Virus record (IMG/VR): IMGVR_UViG_2687453623_000005
DNA: 39,782 nt
Reading direction: 5' to 3' (one strand)
Origin: a virus
Taxonomy: Duplodnaviria; Heunggongvirae; Uroviricota; Caudoviricetes
The notes beneath the pieces were generated by a model. It was given only the letters and a program-made list of their open reading frames with translations. It was not told the DNA's origin and searched no databases. Both the position numbers and the translations under genes were made by a program. Positions 8,982 to 18,696 of the stretch are shown here, one piece after another. Every line of letters starts with the position of its first letter. Position 1 is the stretch's first letter.

Positions 8982-9941
8982 ATGAAAATTTGTATCGACG
9001 ACGGCTCCACCAACATCAAGCTGGCATGGACTGAGAATGGCGAACGCCGCAACGCCATCAGCCCGAACAGCTTCAAGTCGGAATGGTCTGCGCCGTTCGG
9101 TGGCATGCAGCCCGCGAACTACATGCTTGATGGCGTGCGCTATGGTTTTGATCCGGTTAGCGATCGCTTTGTCCAGACGACCGACACGCAATACCAGTAC
9201 AGCGATGTGAATGTAATCGCCATTCATCACGCGCTGGTCAAATCAGGCATCACGCCACAGGAGGTGGATGTGGTTGTCACCCTGCCACTGAGCGAGTATT
9301 TCGACACAAACGCACAGCCGGACATGGCCAACATCAACCGCAAAAAAGCGAACGTTATGCGCCCGGTGGAATACCAGAACGGCGAAGCATTCACTATCCG
9401 TAACGTGCGGGTTATGCCTGAATCCATTCCGGCTGGCTTTAAAGCACTGGCTGACATGAGTCCGTTTGAATCCCTGCTGATTGTGGATTTAGGCGGAACC
9501 ACGCTGGATGTGGCAAAGGTTCAAGGGCAACTGGCAGGTATCAGCCAGGTGTTTTGCGATCCACACGTAGGCGTTTCCCTGATGGCCGATGCCGTACTGT
9601 CGGTGATGGCCACTAACGGTATGCGCACCAGTCACCACATCGCCAATACCATTATCGAACATCGCCATGATGAAGCCTGGCTGCGCCAGCACATCCACAA
9701 TGACGCGCATTACGCCAGCCTGATGGCGGTTATTCGTGAAAAGGAAGAAACACTGAAACAACGCGTGATCCGCGCGCTGGCGGTTTTTTCGGGTTACGGG
9801 CGGGTGATGGTTGTCGGTGGAGGGGCGGAGATTGTGGCACCCGCTATCCGCGAAGTCTGCGGAGTTAATGCGACTTTCATCGCGGACGGGGTGCCACAGT
9901 TTGCTCTGGTTAATGGGCTGTACGCAATGGACAAGGAGTAA
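8982..9941 (+). CDS. parM: ParM/StbA-like actin-type segregation ATPase, 319 aa
   Basis: N-terminus MKICIDDGSTNIKLAW and later IVDLGGTTLD and VVGGGAE motifs align with plasmid R1 ParM as I recall it. Confidence 0.8.
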   Translation: MKICIDDGSTNIKLAWTENGERRNAISPNSFKSEWSAPFGGMQPANYMLDGVRYGFDPVSDRFVQTTDTQYQYSDVNVIAIHHALVKSGITPQEVDVVVTLPLSEYFDTNAQPDMANINRKKANVMRPVEYQNGEAFTIRNVRVMPESIPAGFKALADMSPFESLLIVDLGGTTLDVAKVQGQLAGISQVFCDPHVGVSLMADAVLSVMATNGMRTSHHIANTIIEHRHDEAWLRQHIHNDAHYASLMAVIREKEETLKQRVIRALAVFSGYGRVMVVGGGAEIVAPAIREVCGVNATFIADGVPQFALVNGLYAMDKE

Positions 9942-9945
9942 ACCA

Positions 9946-10260
9946 ATGACGACACCAACCAGACGGATAAGTTTCTATCTGAAGCCCGCCGCCGTCAAGA
10001 GTGAACAGGAGGCGTGCAATTACCTCGATAGCCTGCCAGCCTCCGAACGCAGCCGCGCGCAACGCGCGGCCTTTCTGGCTGGGCTAGCGCTCATAAAGCG
10101 CAACCCAGCATTTGCCTACTGGATGGCCGAATGGCCAGAGGACAACCTCCCCTTCAATACCGTTAGCATCAAGGAAACATACCAGGATAATCAGCCTAGC
10201 GGAGTTGAATGCAATTTTTATAAAATAAAAAAGAATATTCAGACCTTATTCCCAGAATAA
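9946..10260 (+). CDS. parR: ParR-like centromere-binding adaptor, 104 aa
   Basis: N-terminal segment ISFYLKPAAV...LDSLPASERSRAQRAAFLAGLAL resembles R1 ParR. ATG at 9946 with AGGAG ribosome-binding site. Confidence 0.7.
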   Translation: MTTPTRRISFYLKPAAVKSEQEACNYLDSLPASERSRAQRAAFLAGLALIKRNPAFAYWMAEWPEDNLPFNTVSIKETYQDNQPSGVECNFYKIKKNIQTLFPE

Positions 10261-10343: not shown

Positions 10344-11186
10344 TCATGATGAAATTGCCGAAGTTTTTTTATCGTGCTGAAGTACCGCAAATGCCATTAA
10401 AACCTCAAGAGAATAGCGGCGATAATACTTAACAAAACCATAATAAAATACTCGGGATGCAGCAATACAAAACAAGAGAAGAAAACAAAAAGGTAACAGT
10501 CTGATATTTATATCTATTAAAAAGGATAGAAGGAGCAGGAACATAAGCAACCAGACTGAAGCGAGAAAAACAAATGTAATGTTTCTACAAAAACCATACA
10601 AAGCAACATAGTTTTGCATTTTCACCTGATGATTTTTAGAATGTTCATACACATAATGATAAGCAAGGCGAAAAAGATCGCCCCTCAAGCCCTTACGTCG
10701 ATATAGCGTAGATACAGAAAAAACATTTATATAACCATCTCGTATTTGCGGCCAAAAGACTTTAATAAGTATAGAATGCAGTGTGGTTTTATGATGTTCT
10801 GCTTTATCAAAAGCTGATACAGGAAATAAAAAAACTCCACGAATAAAATTAACTATACTGAACTTAGTATTATGTCGTTTTATTTTCAGGGAGCTTCTTT
10901 TAGAAAACAGATAAATTGAAGGATACCCAAGTTTACTGTTCATGTATTTTTCAATTAAACAGGATGATAGAATAGATATGAAGTGACCTGAAATATATGA
11001 TAGAACGATTAATACCACATATATAAATACACTTATTATTTCTTTATATTTCAGGATATGGTTAAGAATACCTTCTATATAAACAGGGTTAATTTCAATA
11101 GAAAACAAAAAAAGGATAAACAGGAATAACCCACCTGGAATTAGATAGCCCAAAAAGTCATAAAATGAAAACGGATTCTGTGTCAC
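10344..11186 (-). CDS. Polytopic membrane protein, 280 aa, unknown function, very AT-rich
   Basis: Multiple hydrophobic segments. GTG start preceded by GGGGGA. Downstream gene of a two-gene minus-strand operon. Confidence 0.6.
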   Translation of the reverse strand: MTQNPFSFYDFLGYLIPGGLFLFILFLFSIEINPVYIEGILNHILKYKEIISVFIYVVLIVLSYISGHFISILSSCLIEKYMNSKLGYPSIYLFSKRSSLKIKRHNTKFSIVNFIRGVFLFPVSAFDKAEHHKTTLHSILIKVFWPQIRDGYINVFSVSTLYRRKGLRGDLFRLAYHYVYEHSKNHQVKMQNYVALYGFCRNITFVFLASVWLLMFLLLLSFLIDINIRLLPFCFLLLFCIAASRVFYYGFVKYYRRYSLEVLMAFAVLQHDKKTSAISS

Positions 11187-11225
11187 ACTTCCCCCTGTGT
11201 TACTTGTAAATTAAAGGGTAAAACA

Positions 11226-11723
11226 TTATTTGTTTTTCCGTAAAGGATTAGCTTTCCATCTTCTTACTAACCATTCGAATTCTTGATATGTAGTATCCGA
11301 ATTAATGCTTTCTCTGATTGCTTTAATTAATGGCTCGGCAATATCATATGTCTCTACAACTGTTGTGTAAGATGTTCTTTTTATCATTTTTTCATCATAA
11401 ATACCTTCACGAATACTTACAGCAACTCGCTCGTAAAAATTTAAAATATATTGAAATTTTCGACGCTCGGCCATTTCTTCATCTGTTATTATGCAACCAT
11501 CACAAGGAAAAACATAAGAACGAAATGATTTGCCTGAACGATGCACTTGTTTCAGGGTATGCAATGACTCTATATATTGCATATCTTGCCGACTCTCAAA
11601 AAGAAAGTTGGCCGTTTGAGTTTTTTTTGCGGTACGCACATTGTAGATAATGGTTCCAATGGCAACCAAAACGCCAAGCAGAACAATAGCATTGCTGATG
11701 ATTTGTAGTGTTATTGGGTTCAT
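11226..11723 (-). CDS. Single-pass membrane protein, 165 aa: N-terminal TM helix plus soluble domain, unknown function
   Basis: N-terminus ITLQIISNAIVLLGVLVAIGTIIY is hydrophobic. Upstream gene of the operon. Confidence 0.6.
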   Translation of the reverse strand: MNPITLQIISNAIVLLGVLVAIGTIIYNVRTAKKTQTANFLFESRQDMQYIESLHTLKQVHRSGKSFRSYVFPCDGCIITDEEMAERRKFQYILNFYERVAVSIREGIYDEKMIKRTSYTTVVETYDIAEPLIKAIRESINSDTTYQEFEWLVRRWKANPLRKNK

Positions 11724-11743
11724 CCTATTTCATCCATAAAAAA

Positions 11744-11764
11744 GGCGGGGAGCAAATCCCCGCC
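11744..11764 (-). terminator. Hairpin GGCGGGGA-N5-TCCCCGCC with T-run on the minus strand; alternatively part of the cos region
   Basis: Seen directly. Partial resemblance to the G-rich P2/186 cohesive-end sequence. Confidence 0.35.
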
Positions 11765-11920
11765 TCATTAGAGGTCAACGTAGCTTAGAAACCATCAAAT
11801 TCATCATACATTTTTTTCATATCAACCCCCTCATAGAAATCATAACCACGTTTTGTGGTTTTTGTGACGTATAAACTACATCAAAGGCAAGCCACGGTCA
11901 AATATATAGGCATGCTTACC

Positions 11921-12019
11921 TGCACAAAAGTGCACAAATTTGCACAATTTTTTTGAACGACTTTTTACCCTTCCGGCCCGCATGGCGGCTGGATCCGTCA
12001 AGGATCCGTGCGTGCACAA
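11921..12019. repeat. Phased TGCACAA repeats (11921, 11931, 11941, 12013) plus a GGATCCGT direct repeat (11991, 12002)
   Basis: Seen directly; three copies at exact 10-bp spacing in a 700 bp non-coding stretch. Confidence 0.5.
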
Positions 12020-12446
12020 AAAAACGCGCTTTTTCTGCGCGCAGGTGACGGGGGAACAGCCCGCGTTTCAGGGGGTAAATAGCATTCCCTGAACGATGTC
12101 GCAGAGACACAACAGAATGGCCATATTTCTCACGCTGAGCATGAAAAAGGCGTGAGGGCTTTTGATTTGATGGGGTGAAAGGTAAGGCCGTCAAAATCGC
12201 ACTGAGGCAGCGAGAACATGCAGTCAACGCGGTGGAATTGCGTAAGAGTCTGACCGTCGATGGTGGCGATAAACTGGAAGGCGTCGTGAAATTATCTGAT
12301 TGATACAGGAGCTGGAGAGCCGGGGCATAAATTTTTTATGCCCCGGCGAAGCAGCAGACAAGCGAAGCGCGTCAGCGATACGGCACCTTGCCGACCATAC
12401 TTCATAAGTGCAAAATACGAGCAAAGAAATCAATGGAGGCTGTCTT

Positions 12447-12971
12447 ATGGTCATTAATTACAAGCAGTTAAGAGAAAAACGGGAGCAGGTAAAGGAGAGC
12501 TTTCGCCGCAATGAAGATCTGACCCCGCTTGTACGCCTTGCCCAGGGCATTGTTGATGCTTATGAAATCTCGCTGGAGCTGCCATCACAGACCTGGACAG
12601 ATAGCGACGGTAATCGCCAGCATTACGTTTCATGCGGACTGGAAGCAGCCGAAGGATTTCGCAGAATGCCTTTATCCCAGATCCCTGCCGCTACCCCCAA
12701 AGCACGGGGCAGCAATGATGAGCGAAAACTGACTTTTAGTATTGAAACGGTGGTTGACGACACACCTGGCGAAGTCGCGTTCGTGCACACTCCTGTTTCG
12801 ATCGCAATGTATAACGATGAAATACAGGTTCGCGTTAATAATAATATCGTGCCACTTAAAGAAGGTAATTCACCCTACACCACCGTTTGTGAAGCCATTC
12901 AATATTACGTTCTCTCTGAAATTGATAATCTCAAGCCTGACGGCACCCAGAAAATGGTTCAACTCTGGTAA
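12447..12971 (+). CDS. Hypothetical protein, 174 aa, between cos-like region and portal gene
   Basis: ATG at 12447 with GGAGG ribosome-binding site; followed by a bidirectional terminator. Confidence 0.55.
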   Translation: MVINYKQLREKREQVKESFRRNEDLTPLVRLAQGIVDAYEISLELPSQTWTDSDGNRQHYVSCGLEAAEGFRRMPLSQIPAATPKARGSNDERKLTFSIETVVDDTPGEVAFVHTPVSIAMYNDEIQVRVNNNIVPLKEGNSPYTTVCEAIQYYVLSEIDNLKPDGTQKMVQLW

Positions 12972-13002
12972 AAAGGACAGCCCCATCACGGGGCTGTTTT
13001 TT
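12971..13002. terminator. Bidirectional intrinsic terminator between the 174-aa gene and Q
   Basis: Hairpin CAGCCCC-N5-GGGGCTG flanked by an A-run and a T-run. Confidence 0.6.
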
Positions 13003-14032
13003 CATCAAGAAGAGCATAAGAGTTAAAACGGATCACCTCTTCGCCAAGCCAGTCATTGATGTGCTTCATAGCCTCCATAACGGGCATCAGCTCGTTAATT
13101 GCGTAAACCCGCGCTGCCTTCTCCACATCGCCAAACGCACTTTTTTCGCCCGGCATCGCCCCCATCAGTTGCGGCGGAACGCGGTGCGCAGCCAGCACAT
13201 CATCACGGGATGCCGCCTTAACATTCATGAATTCATCTTTTGCGGTGATCTGCTGGAACGGCAAAATTTGCACCCCCTCTTTGCCCCCGTTGGGCGCATG
13301 AATGAGCACGTTTTTAAACGCACCACCACCACGTGCCCCCTGTAGCGTTTCTTTCAGGGAGTCCATGCTTTCGCGGTTTACCTGCGCTGCACCGATGTAG
13401 ATGATGCACCCGGCGTGGGATCCGTTGTCGTAGTACAGTTTTCTGAACATGTCCGCCGAATGAGAAAGGCTGGCCGAGAGTAATGCGCCAAGATATTCCG
13501 GCATGCCGTAGATTTCCTGGTTAATATCCGGATTCATCAGGTGGCACACTTTGCCAGGACGAAACTGAAACGCGTCCTTGCCATCCTGCACATACCACCA
13601 TGATTCAAGATCGCTTCCGCGTCGCATGTATTTCGCCAGGGCGTGCCGTAATTTAAGCGGTTCGCCGAGCATATTGCTTCGAAGCTCAAGGAATGCGTTA
13701 CCGAACACAAACCAGTCCAGCGCCAGCGCCGAGAAATCCTGCCGGGAAAGCAGCGGGTGCGGGATGTAGCAACCGAGTAATACATTGCGCTTAAAGTAAA
13801 GCGCAGACTGATGCCAGGACGTTTGCCGGGCTGCTCTTGCCAGACCGTACCAGTCCACCGGGGTTTCATACCACCGCCCGTTATCAGCACAGTACATATT
13901 GTCCAGCAGGTCATGCCCGGTCAGGCGATAAGGACCATCAAATGTGAATGCACTGAGCGATGATTCTTTCCTGAGCGCATCAGCGAGATCAATGCGTGAA
14001 CTCATGCGCACTTTTTTATTTTTTCTGCTCAT
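12986..14032 (-). CDS. Q: Portal protein, P2 gpQ-like, 348 aa
   Basis: Size and position next to terminase P, divergent from the O-N-M-L operon. Confidence 0.9.
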   Translation of the reverse strand: MSRKNKKVRMSSRIDLADALRKESSLSAFTFDGPYRLTGHDLLDNMYCADNGRWYETPVDWYGLARAARQTSWHQSALYFKRNVLLGCYIPHPLLSRQDFSALALDWFVFGNAFLELRSNMLGEPLKLRHALAKYMRRGSDLESWWYVQDGKDAFQFRPGKVCHLMNPDINQEIYGMPEYLGALLSASLSHSADMFRKLYYDNGSHAGCIIYIGAAQVNRESMDSLKETLQGARGGGAFKNVLIHAPNGGKEGVQILPFQQITAKDEFMNVKAASRDDVLAAHRVPPQLMGAMPGEKSAFGDVEKAARVYAINELMPVMEAMKHINDWLGEEVIRFNSYALLDEKTAP

Positions 14033-15783
14033 CAGAACTCCATAACCATGAAACGCTCGTTTTCTCCTTCGCCGCCAATTGGTTCGTTAATGACAGCAAG
14101 CATGGTTGCCCACGCAAGGTCGCCGTGGCTGATCCCCCTCGCGCGGTCCGTTTCGTAAGTGATAAAGCCGCCCGGTGTTTTCACCTTACGCACGGCGTTA
14201 AAGGCCGCGACCAGCTCGCGTTCGGCGCGATCGTATTCCCACCGCCCGGCACGCATTATTTGCAGCATTTTCAGTACCAGCGACCGTTTTGATGACAGCG
14301 TGAAGGTGTACGGAATAGCAGCAGGGAAAAACCGCTTCACTATCTGATAAACAGCCTCCCCGTTCCCGCCCGTCACATCAATGCCGATGTGTTCCACGTT
14401 GTAGCGACACGTGAACTCTTCAATGACTCTGGCCTGTTCTTCAAACTCCAGCCCCTGAACGCGTCGCGTCTCCACCGTTCGAAAACGGCCGCCAGGAACA
14501 GCCGGAGGAACCACCACGGACACAGCGCCGCTGTCGCCGTTGCCACTACTGCCGTTTGCGTCATACCCAATCCATACCGGACGATTCCCCATCGGGCGGG
14601 GAGCAAAAGGTTTCCAGTCTTTCCAGTCGTCGTATCCGTCAACACCGCAGCCAATCAGGATATTCAGGTTAAATGCCGATTCCCCTTCGCGGACAAACTC
14701 ACACATATAGAGATTGAGGAACTCGTCTTCGGTGTTTTCATCACGAATTTCGTCGATATCGGTGTGTTTCCAGCCGTGATTAACCACATCTTCCAGCGTG
14801 ACAATTTGCCGCCACGTCCGGTCAGGGCAGATAAGCCCATTATGCAGCGTTTTCCAGTCCACAGAAAAACGCTGGCGTTTATGCGAGGCCTTTTTCTCGT
14901 TCCAGCGGTCGCCGTTCCAGTAGGCGTATGCCTCGTGCGTTTCGGTGGATGGCGTGGAGAAGTAGGTGCGCCGCAGTCCGCTGAGGGTTGCCATAGCGCC
15001 AGCCACCTTGCGCAGTTCAGCAAAGCGACTGACCCAGAAAAATTCATCAAAATAAAAATTGCCCGTATAGGACTGTGCCGACGCAGCAGAAGTGCCGAGA
15101 AAATGCAGCTCTGCGCCGTTGGAGAGGATGATTTTATCGCCCCCTTTCAGCTCCACATCAACTTCAGCCGCGGCCTTCTGAATAATGCTTTTAAACTGGA
15201 ACGCCTGACGACGCGACGCAGACAAAAAAATCTGGTTACGCTGGTAAGGTTGCGCCACATCGTCACGCAGCGCCATCAGCAGTGCTTCCTGTGCAAAATA
15301 CCAGGTCGCCCCAATCTGTCGGGATTTCAGGATCATCCTGTTACGTATCCCGGCTTCCCTGCAAAGGGTCAGGGAGTCAAACCAGCCCCGCTGATGCCAC
15401 TCCAGCCTGCTGATGATTTTTTCCCGCAGTGCGGCAATCTGTTCCGGCGTGAAATGATTTTTGAGTTTTTTCGCCCGGCCTTTCTTTCCTGCGGCCATCA
15501 CATCCGGCTGGCCATCATGCAGCTTTTTAAGCTGCCGGGTCAGCAGGTCTATTTCCTTAAAGTCACCGCCTGTTTTATTCTGTTTTTCAGTAAGCTGGAT
15601 GAGGCGCGCATCGATGGACTGCGTGACACGCTGCACGGGTGGCGTTTCATCCCACTGGTCACGTTTTTTCCACGCATAAATCGTGTTCGGGTTTATTCCC
15701 ATCAGACGTGATATTTCTGCGGGCGGATAACCCTGCCAGTAAAGTTGCCGCGCACGCTGGCGCACAAAAGCGTCCTGAATCAT
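14032..15783 (-). CDS. P: Terminase large (ATPase) subunit, P2 gpP-like, 583 aa
   Basis: Size and synteny with Q; stop of P overlaps start of Q. Confidence 0.9.
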   Translation of the reverse strand: MIQDAFVRQRARQLYWQGYPPAEISRLMGINPNTIYAWKKRDQWDETPPVQRVTQSIDARLIQLTEKQNKTGGDFKEIDLLTRQLKKLHDGQPDVMAAGKKGRAKKLKNHFTPEQIAALREKIISRLEWHQRGWFDSLTLCREAGIRNRMILKSRQIGATWYFAQEALLMALRDDVAQPYQRNQIFLSASRRQAFQFKSIIQKAAAEVDVELKGGDKIILSNGAELHFLGTSAASAQSYTGNFYFDEFFWVSRFAELRKVAGAMATLSGLRRTYFSTPSTETHEAYAYWNGDRWNEKKASHKRQRFSVDWKTLHNGLICPDRTWRQIVTLEDVVNHGWKHTDIDEIRDENTEDEFLNLYMCEFVREGESAFNLNILIGCGVDGYDDWKDWKPFAPRPMGNRPVWIGYDANGSSGNGDSGAVSVVVPPAVPGGRFRTVETRRVQGLEFEEQARVIEEFTCRYNVEHIGIDVTGGNGEAVYQIVKRFFPAAIPYTFTLSSKRSLVLKMLQIMRAGRWEYDRAERELVAAFNAVRKVKTPGGFITYETDRARGISHGDLAWATMLAVINEPIGGEGENERFMVMEF

Positions 15784-17895: not shown

Positions 17896-18696
17896 ATGAT
17901 TACTCCTGCACAACAACACTGGCAGAACGTGATGGCACAGCGCGCAGGCCGGGCGAATGAAGGTGTGGACCACGCCGCGTGTACCGCGCATGAAGAGGTG
18001 CTGTATCGTCTGCGTCTGGCACAGGCCAGGCTAAAGGCCATACAGGCCAGAAGCGCGAAAGCCGCCATCAAAAAAGAGTTGTTGCCGGACTTTTCCGGCT
18101 GGATTGAGGGAACGCTGGAGGCTGACGGCGGGCAACAGGACGAAGTAATTGCCACGCTGATGGTGTGGGCGATTGACTGCGGCGATCTTCCGCTGGCGCT
18201 GCGTATTGGTGCATATGTGGTCCGTCACAACCTCATCATGCCGGATAACTTTGGCCGTACTGCTGCCACGGTACTGACCGAAGAAATCTGCAACCCGGTA
18301 CTGACGCAGGCTGGGACGGATGCCGACGCGGATTTATCCGCCTTTATCGAACCACTGGACACACTTTGGGAAATTATCGCCAACCAGGACATGCCGGACG
18401 AAGTGCGCGCCAAATTATGCAAGGCGTGTGCCTTTGCCCGTCGTGGCCTGACCGATGCAGACAACATGGCCTCATCACTGAAGCTGCTGCGCGAAGCGAT
18501 GCACCTGAACCCGAACGCAGGTGTGAAACGCGAGATTGCAACCCTTTCCCGCGCCCTGAAAAAAGCCGATTCCGCAGCCGAACCAGAAGACGCCAGCGCA
18601 CAGCAGGCGCAGGACGAAAGCAGCAAAAGTAAAAAGACAACGCGGAAGCCTGCAACACGAAAAACCACCGCGACGCAGAAGGCAAAGCGCGGTTAA
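17896..18696 (+). CDS. M: Terminase small/endonuclease subunit, P2 gpM-like, 266 aa
   Basis: PDEVRAKL motif and basic C-terminal tail resemble P2 gpM. Confidence 0.85.
   Translation: MITPAQQHWQNVMAQRAGRANEGVDHAACTAHEEVLYRLRLAQARLKAIQARSAKAAIKKELLPDFSGWIEGTLEADGGQQDEVIATLMVWAIDCGDLPLALRIGAYVVRHNLIMPDNFGRTAATVLTEEICNPVLTQAGTDADADLSAFIEPLDTLWEIIANQDMPDEVRAKLCKACAFARRGLTDADNMASSLKLLREAMHLNPNAGVKREIATLSRALKKADSAAEPEDASAQQAQDESSKSKKTTRKPATRKTTATQKAKRG

Follow-up and report, generated by a model that had tools for sequence, protein, structure and literature searches.

The P2-family phages, which reportedly mature monomeric circles (a view attributed to Pruss and Calendar and to Bowden and Modrich), provide the closest described systems for the locus considered here; the cohesive ends of both P2 and 186 lie in the same interval, running from the accessory genes downstream of A to the end of the portal gene Q. 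A 55-bp core of the cohesive-end (cos) site is needed for P2/P4 packaging (Ziermann and Calendar 1990, as cited in PMC3931495 and PMC5694545), and cos sites are routinely inferred by analogy (PMC3931495, PMC5694545). Here we compare with these systems a stretch at positions 11724-12446 of a 39,782-nucleotide virus record (IMG/VR IMGVR_UViG_2687453623_000005; the whole of this sequence is referred to as the window). Sequence comparison identifies the window as a P2-family prophage of the P88 / Xuanwuvirus type. Escherichia phages vB_EcoM-569R5 and 705R2 match the stretch at 100% identity, and P88, 520873, 500465-2, and P88_4B11 match it in part at 93 to 95%. The initial annotation proposed the entire stretch as a cos/packaging region; synteny, homology, boundary mapping, and a satellite-like island all favor a cos of the P2/186 type, but this occupies just ∼166 of the 723 bp. 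We conclude that positions 11921-12086 are very probably (at roughly 0.85) the cos site, that is, the cohesive-end packaging site, of this P88-like prophage.

The module is organized as follows, with coordinates in the window:

11921-12086, no strand assigned: the whole conserved cos module, ∼166 bp, delimited by homology breakpoints and the satellite-like island
11921-11947, plus strand: distal triple TGCACAA repeat in 10-bp phase (copies at 11921-11927, 11931-11937, and 11941-11947)
11948-11954, plus strand: tract of seven T residues following the triple repeat
11955-12012, no strand assigned: spacer of ∼58 bp, its length kept and its sequence variable
11991-11998 and 12002-12009: GGATCCGT direct repeat, inside the spacer
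12013-12025, plus strand: proximal TGCACAA (12013-12019) followed by an A-run, at -31 from the predicted nick
12037-12043, plus strand: left flank GCGCGCA, conserved in the module consensus
12044-12062, plus strand: predicted 19-nt cohesive end (cosN), GGTGACGGGGGAACAGCCC, from homology in position and sequence
12063-12086, plus strand: right flank GCGTTTCAGGGGGTAAAT..., identical in the satellite-like island

For comparison with defined cos sites, the right and left ends of P2, 186, PsP3, P4, phiRSA1, and phiCTX were joined (their records start at the measured cohesive ends) and short repeats were marked. The repeats start at the following positions relative to the nick, which in the window is predicted to lie before G12044:

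Window, TGCACAA: -123/-113/-103/-31
P2, TGCAT: -123/-111/-101/-29
186, TGCAT: -124/-111/-101/-29
PsP3, TGCAT: -120/-111/-101/-29
P4, TGCAT: -124/-111/-101/-29
phiRSA1, TGCAT: -129/-110/-100/-35/-29
phiCTX, YGCAGRR (GCAG type): -109/-99/-83/-37/-28

The distal triple of the window is positionally equivalent to the TGCAT triples of P2, 186, PsP3, P4, and phiRSA1, and its proximal repeat at -31 is equivalent to TGCATTAAAA at -29 in P2, 186, and P4. Alignment with the P2 and 186 cos regions, suggested at the outset as a check, reveals this shared repeat architecture together with a 19-mer that is identical to that of P2 at 13 of 19 positions (GGTGACGGGGGAACAGCCC versus GGCGAGGCGGGGAAAGCAC). The module also sits in the expected place, between gpA with its adjoining cargo and the portal gene Q, as in the P2 and 186 gene orders. 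The likeness to P2, 186, PsP3, and P4 thus includes a cos between the gpA-side hotspot and Q, a G-rich 19-mer with GC-rich flanks, a YGCA repeat with an A-run at about -30, three YGCA repeats from about -100 to -124, a module common to a satellite or satellite-like element, and an adjoining cargo hotspot. The differences are that the P2 group has TGCAT with 12-13/10 spacing whereas the window has TGCACAA with strict 10/10-bp spacing, that the cosN of the window is GGTGACGGGGGAACAGCCC, that the window ends are predicted whereas the P2-group ends are measured (19-nt 5′ cohesive), and that the window terminase proteins are just 37 to 45% identical to those of P2.

More distant systems share parts of this arrangement. 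The Ralstonia phage phiRSA1 has repeats at -110/-100/-29 and a measured end (5′-GGTGAGGCGGGGTCC(C)AAC) that, like the window 19-mer, begins with GGTGA (GGTGAGGCGGGG; PMC5694545), but its heptamer is of the TGCAT type. In the Pseudomonas phage phiCTX, phased repeats lie at -109/-99 and -37/-28, and repeats R3 to R6 are already annotated around cos in the database record; this phage differs in its YGCAGRR repeats, a 21-nt end, and an annotated site for integration host factor (IHF). The lambda cos (cosQ-cosN-cosB, with gpNu1 R sites and IHF) is similar in combining a nicking site, a repeat array for the small terminase, and bent DNA, but it has no sequence homology to the window cos, which lacks an IHF consensus and, with the packaging direction presumed here, has its repeat array toward what would be the right end of the mature genome. 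We infer from these comparisons that YGCA repeats at approximately -123/-111/-101 and -29 are a defining feature of P2-family cos sites; no such statement was found in the literature searched.

The arrangement of the repeats is unusual for this DNA. The initial annotation described TGCACAA three times at exact 10-bp spacing with a further copy at 12013, and both sequence and shuffling confirm it. The window-wide total is at chance (10 copies versus 10.1 expected) but the clustering is not, as 4 of these 10 lie within 99 bp of the 39.8-kb sequence. TGCACAA is the sole 7-mer in the window with three copies at exact 10-bp spacing; any 7-mer triple at this spacing arises in 1 of 300 dinucleotide-preserving shuffles, and any 7-mer with at least four copies per 100 bp in 0 of 100. 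Together, the A/T runs between the repeats and the T tract make up helically phased A/T tracts, and the DNA here is probably intrinsically bent.

The cut site, which had been considered impossible to fix by eye, can be placed by homology at 12044-12062, where staggered nicks are expected to leave GGTGACGGGGGAACAGCCC as a 5′ overhang. Two G-rich elements had been proposed to resemble the P2/186 end in part: both exist, but only the second is the cohesive-end homologue, better delimited as 12044-12062 than as 12047-12065, and the first is a terminator (see below). Relatives in Klebsiella, Yokenella, Brenneria, Pectobacterium, and Xenorhabdus are informative in that they retain the TGCACAA repeats and carry GGCGAGGCGGGGGAGCAAG, flanked by GCGCGC on both sides, in place of 12044-12062. 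These relatives bridge the window cosN to P2 and rule out an alternative alignment, in which TGCGCGC at 12036-12042 is matched to the TGCGCGC located after the cohesive end of P2 and an A/T-rich 19-mer would become the end. The left flank of the nick is GCGCGCA in the window, compared with gtgggca/GG in 186 and gcgggcg/GG in P2 (the slash marks the nick). A full-text literature search found no paper with the predicted end sequence GGTGACGGGGGAACAGCCC.

Both edges of the module are sharply defined. On the left, relatives with different cargo begin matching exactly at 11921, the first base of the first TGCACAA (position 22 of the query 11900-12130 in a sensitive search). The module is present in 1,130 of 5,426 complete E. 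coli genomes (∼21%), of which 288 share the cargo too and ∼840 match only from 11920/11921 onward. On the right, a satellite-like island shares 11920-12086 (167 bp, 81% identity) and essentially nothing else at the nucleotide level. Because of the cargo breakpoint on one side and the end of the island match on the other, we take the functional unit to be approximately 11921-12086 rather than the full 723 bp.

These boundaries also bear on whether the TGCACAA array might be not a packaging signal at all but a set of operators, an UP element, or a promoter controlling the leftward cargo operon. In favor of this, the array is rich in A/T and its DNA is probably bent, a promoter-like sequence occurs close by on the minus strand (11839-11868), and in P2 the old-tin starts (33424/33426) are ∼150 bp left of the nick, with the TGCAT triple in the upstream/-35 region of that promoter. 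We nonetheless consider transcriptional control quite improbable, as the repeats stay at the same distance from cosN whichever of hundreds of unrelated cargos adjoins them, and in whichever orientation, and are kept in satellites also, and the homology breakpoint leaves the cargo promoter outside the conserved module. In 186, moreover, the neighboring gene is co-directional and ends in a terminator, and the repeats are still there.

Conservation within the TGCACAA class was assessed in 113 distinct modules; their sources were 120 viral contigs and 44 loci in species-representative genomes. The spacing is exactly -123/-113/-103/-31 in 96 of the 113 and differs by 2 bp or less in the others. A consensus alignment of 29 modules with mutual identity below 85% contains four conserved blocks: the triple repeat with its T tract, TGCACAAAAA, GCGCGCA with the 19-mer, and a G-run ∼28 nt beyond the nick, within the right flank, in which GGGG is conserved. 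Although the spacer sequence changes, the distal and proximal repeats stay the same distance apart to within ∼2 bp, in the satellite-like copy as well. We note that in the prophage record IMGVR_UViG_2681813261_000011 (∼12836-12900), otherwise P88-like, an IS1 element has inserted between the proximal repeat and cosN, such that the IS1 end (…GGAGTCATTACC) abuts CAGGTGACGGGGG; this insertion should abolish packaging from that cos. Dispersed TGCACAA-rich repeats (e.g., TGCACAAnnnTGCACAA…TGCACAAAATTGCACAA) also occur in Bryobacterales/Bryobacteraceae metagenome-assembled genomes (Acidobacteria); these and other non-enterobacterial pattern matches were rejected as unrelated, with no cosN or portal gene nearby, and those in Bryobacterales are probably a lineage-specific repeat family.

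Within the spacer, the GGATCCGT direct repeat reported by the initial annotation is present at 11991 and 12002 (three copies in the window versus 0.87 expected), together with a GC-rich imperfect dyad (∼11973-11992). The direct repeat is found solely in a sub-lineage from E. coli, Salmonella, and Citrobacter, and the satellite-like copy does not have it, so the direct repeat is unlikely to be required for function and appears to be lineage-specific filler. Neither it nor the dyad was retained as a functional element, being unconserved across lineages and in the satellite-like copy, and the fold is unexceptional (z -0.7).

The repeats had been suggested to be terminase or IHF binding arrays, and only the first of these finds support. 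No match to the IHF consensus WATCAANNNNTTR with one mismatch or fewer lies inside 11921-12086, and window-wide matches are at chance (31 versus 31.5 expected). It is conceivable that the array is a site for a host architectural protein of the IHF or Fis type that aids bending, with specificity residing wholly in cosN and its flanks (the 55-bp core); IHF is used at lambda cosB, the record of phiCTX has an annotated IHF site close to cos, and the literature stresses the 55-bp core. We regard this as highly unlikely, given the missing IHF consensus and the heptamers, which differ by phage lineage within E. coli (TGCAT versus TGCACAA), a distinction needless for a host factor. The heptamer also tracks the terminase clade, whereas cosN does not.

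The genes relevant to this correlation and to the setting of the module are as follows:

6083-8905: gpA, on the left side of the cos module
8982-10260: ParM and ParR-like genes (Pfam: ParM actin-like ATPase with StbA_N and ParM_N; Plasmid_stab_B)
10344-11723, minus strand: variable cargo of the gpA-cos hotspot, a 280-amino-acid protein and a DUF4760 protein
12986-14032, minus strand: portal gpQ (Pfam)
14032-15783, minus strand: large terminase gpP, Terminase_6N/6C with an N-terminal helix-turn-helix (HTH; Pfam Terminase_5)
17896-18696, plus strand: small terminase gpM (Pfam Phage_term_smal)

Following the module, the right-hand order is a 174-amino-acid gene and then the head genes Q, P, O, N, and M (then L), and Pfam matches place the cognate terminase (gpP and gpM) on the same element as the cos module. 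The window gpM is 37 to 39% identical to gpM of P2, 186, phiRSA1, and phiCTX. At all TGCACAA loci, gpM is 55 to 100% identical to that of the window as against ∼36 to 38% to that of P2, whatever the cosN, which varies among these loci and in some is the P2-like GGCGAGGCGGGGGAGCAAG. Among 80 Psu-encoding P4-like satellites in viral contigs, 75 have TGCAT at -124/-111/-101/-29 and none has TGCACAA, and those 75 show at least six cosN variants (e.g., GGCGTGGCGGGGAGAGCAT). These patterns are suggestive of a heptamer type that tracks terminase clade and helper-satellite pairing where cosN does not, and for this reason we read the TGCACAA repeats as putative terminase recognition subsites, functionally cosB-like, while regarding the covariation as suggestive and not as proof.

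The satellite-like island mentioned above is an element of ∼12.5 kb located between hpt and gcd (contig L179, 6413-18927, equivalent to E. coli STEC379 NZ_CP091024 4151224-4163738; also contig L172), and its cos belongs to the TGCACAA class. It codes for an integrase, an AlpA-like regulator, an Icd-like protein, an 889-amino-acid Toprim primase, a second, P2-Int-like integrase, Ogr/Delta, a 236-amino-acid protein of unknown function, a P2-family major capsid protein, and MazEF; no portal or terminase gene is present, and no small-terminase homologue was detected in it. The capsid protein is 423 amino acids long, 35% identical to the window gpN, and has an N-terminal extension of ∼120 amino acids. 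Other nucleotide matches to the window are short and weak (69 to 79%), in the integrase region (two), at ∼5150-5350, and in the capsid gene. The island occurs at 80% coverage or more in 56 of the 5,426 complete E. coli genomes, and no description of it was found in the literature searched. The island resembles a satellite equipped with a capsid gene of its own, and its sharing of just the cos module with the phage is suggestive of piracy. Tentatively, and at somewhat less than even odds, the heptamers might constitute an address code read by the terminase, defining at least two helper/satellite classes in E. coli (TGCAT for P2, 186, PsP3, and the sampled Psu-encoding P4-like satellites; TGCACAA for P88-like phages), with the island having adopted TGCACAA to parasitize P88-like phages.

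Several observations weigh against our identification of cos or against parts of its interpretation. No record in the phage collection searched starts or ends at the predicted nick site, and the one virion-derived record, P88_4B11, is opened 78 bp upstream of it, between the T tract and the spacer, which is probably an arbitrary assembly break. Contigs L131 (5550-5620) and L067 (3250-3320) have a truncated module with two adjacent repeats (TGCACAATAGTGCACAAAAAA) and cosN, equivalent to the loss of 82 bp between the second repeat and the proximal one. These two have a window-like gpA/ParM region upstream followed by a very divergent head module (gpM 22% and portal 28% identity), and their sole relative among complete genomes, E. 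coli A2, is without the cos segment and has a frameshifted TerL; they may be a recombinant formed at cos. P2 itself is without the GC-rich dyad of the spacer, so this dyad cannot be general. Only two or three motif classes underlie the repeat-terminase correlation, in which common descent is a confounder. In identity matrices for six phages, moreover, gpM and the N-terminal HTH of gpP are equally divergent from their P2 counterparts, and because the two diverge in parallel the correlation cannot separate gpM from the gpP HTH as the reader of the repeats.

If 11921-12086 is cos, a plausible scheme is that a terminase composed of the gpM small subunit and the gpP large subunit, with its N-terminal HTH, would recognize the four YGCA-type heptamers, the phased TGCACAA copies at -123/-113/-103 and the one at -31. 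Bending or wrapping of the DNA, suggested by the constant spacer length and by A/T tracts that share the helical phase of the repeats, would place the gpP nuclease over the G-rich cosN. Nicks staggered by 19 nt at 12044-12062 would then generate the 5′-GGTGACGGGGGAACAGCCC cohesive ends, although the exact nick positions and the identity of the binding subunit are predictions. The heptamer type would set packaging specificity with respect to terminase clade and satellites, with cosN as a more generic cutting site.

These findings leave the accepted view of P2-family packaging unchanged and extend it to a common E. coli prophage lineage, in which the cos is a new sequence variant of a well-known element; the by-products of most interest are the two repeat-defined packaging classes and the island carrying a capsid gene. 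The start and end of the virion genome are now predicted for P88-like (Xuanwuvirus and related) prophages. In the deposited records that we inspected, cos is either unannotated or overlaid with spurious "hypothetical protein" open reading frames. At ∼166 bp, the module could be tested as a minimal packaging signal in transduction studies and in vectors of the cosmid or phagemid type, and the comparisons suggest that compatibility with a terminase, and hence between helper and satellite, is decided by the distal repeats and not by the sequence of the cohesive end. The interval between gpA, cos, and gpQ is a hotspot for defense genes adjoining cos in P2-like phages (Rousset et al. 2022, PMC9122126), and position 11921 fixes the right-hand boundary of this anti-phage defense hotspot to the base pair.

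Directly downstream of gpA, this integrated P2-like prophage carries a type II partition cassette, the ParM/Plasmid_stab_B pair. With these genes encoded 1.7 kb left of the array, and with type II centromeres built as arrays of short phased repeats, the TGCACAA copies could be thought of as a parC-like centromere or as replication iterons serving the genes at 8982-10260. This is extremely unlikely: the repeats occur in relatives without partition genes, such as phiT5282H, in which a 2.2-kb coding sequence abuts the module, and in the satellite-like island, which has no parMR. Two opposite-strand cargo genes separate the array from parMR, and the repeats are fixed in position relative to cosN and not to parM.

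The remainder of the 723-bp stretch contains or abuts the following features:

11742-11766, minus strand: intrinsic terminator in the variable cargo, corresponding to the first G-rich dyad of the initial annotation
11785-11905, minus strand: putative cargo-side leader, with promoter-like hexamers at 11839-11868 (from a scan) and a short open reading frame
12319-12347, no strand assigned: perfect 13-bp hairpin, a tQ-like bidirectional terminator (from the fold, relatives, and the P2 tQ annotation)
12447-12971, plus strand: 174-amino-acid gene of unassigned function (phrog_5091, no Pfam match)

The segment left of the module, 11724-11920, is the promoter/leader and terminator end of the variable hotspot cargo operon and not part of cos. 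The first dyad is a perfect 9-bp G-rich dyad at 11743-11765, within a 10-bp stem (seven GC pairs) with a 5-nt loop that is followed on the minus strand by the T-run TTTTTTAT. It folds with a free energy of -21.6 kcal/mol (z -4.4, with 0 of 200 shuffles as stable) and lies 14 nt upstream of the DUF4760 start codon, to the left of the 11921 breakpoint. A second or ancestral cos was considered for this dyad and rejected, as it is without the flanking repeat architecture, lies in variable cargo, and behaves as a terminator. An Rfam scan of 11000-13200 identified no RNA family; the sole hit, to SorX, is below threshold (19.3 bits versus a gathering score of 46.6) and reflects the terminator hairpin only. 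Upstream of the terminator and the DUF4760 gene is an 11-codon open reading frame, MKKMYDEFDGF (11785-11820, minus strand), with a strong GAGGGGG Shine-Dalgarno sequence, an arrangement that, taken with the terminator, is reminiscent of leader-peptide attenuation of the cargo operon. The 280-amino-acid cargo protein belongs to phrog_12528 and has a weak PADLOC match to the type VI-B CRISPR-associated Csx27 (E 1e-5); it and the DUF4760 protein are a candidate defense pair, and the cargo recurs in the 288 E. coli genomes noted above.

The claim that the stretch is non-coding essentially holds, and the next real gene starts at 12447, in agreement with the end coordinate originally given. The open reading frames listed at 11916-12227 (minus strand) and 11940-12092 (plus strand) overlap DNA that is conserved block-wise. 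To the right of the module, 12087-12446 is a spacer, the tQ-like terminator, and the region upstream of the inserted gene, none of it cos. Positions 12087-12318 are non-coding; a 42-codon open reading frame at 12175-12303 is annotated in some phage records, and it has no third-position excess (variable sites 23/18/16 by codon position) among 62 homologues, some of which have internal stops. The hairpin at 12319-12347 is very stable (-31.6 and -29.3 kcal/mol, z approximately -7), and in relatives the tQ-like hairpin lies directly downstream of the portal gene Q. In the window, the 12447-12971 gene is inserted between the hairpin and the Q stop codon and is absent from P88, 520873, and P88_4B11, and we interpret its location as a second slot for cargo, between cos and Q. 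Insertions are known to occur in this interval (PMC5694545); the cargo there is ctx in phiCTX and ORF1-4 in phiRSA1 and phiRSY1.

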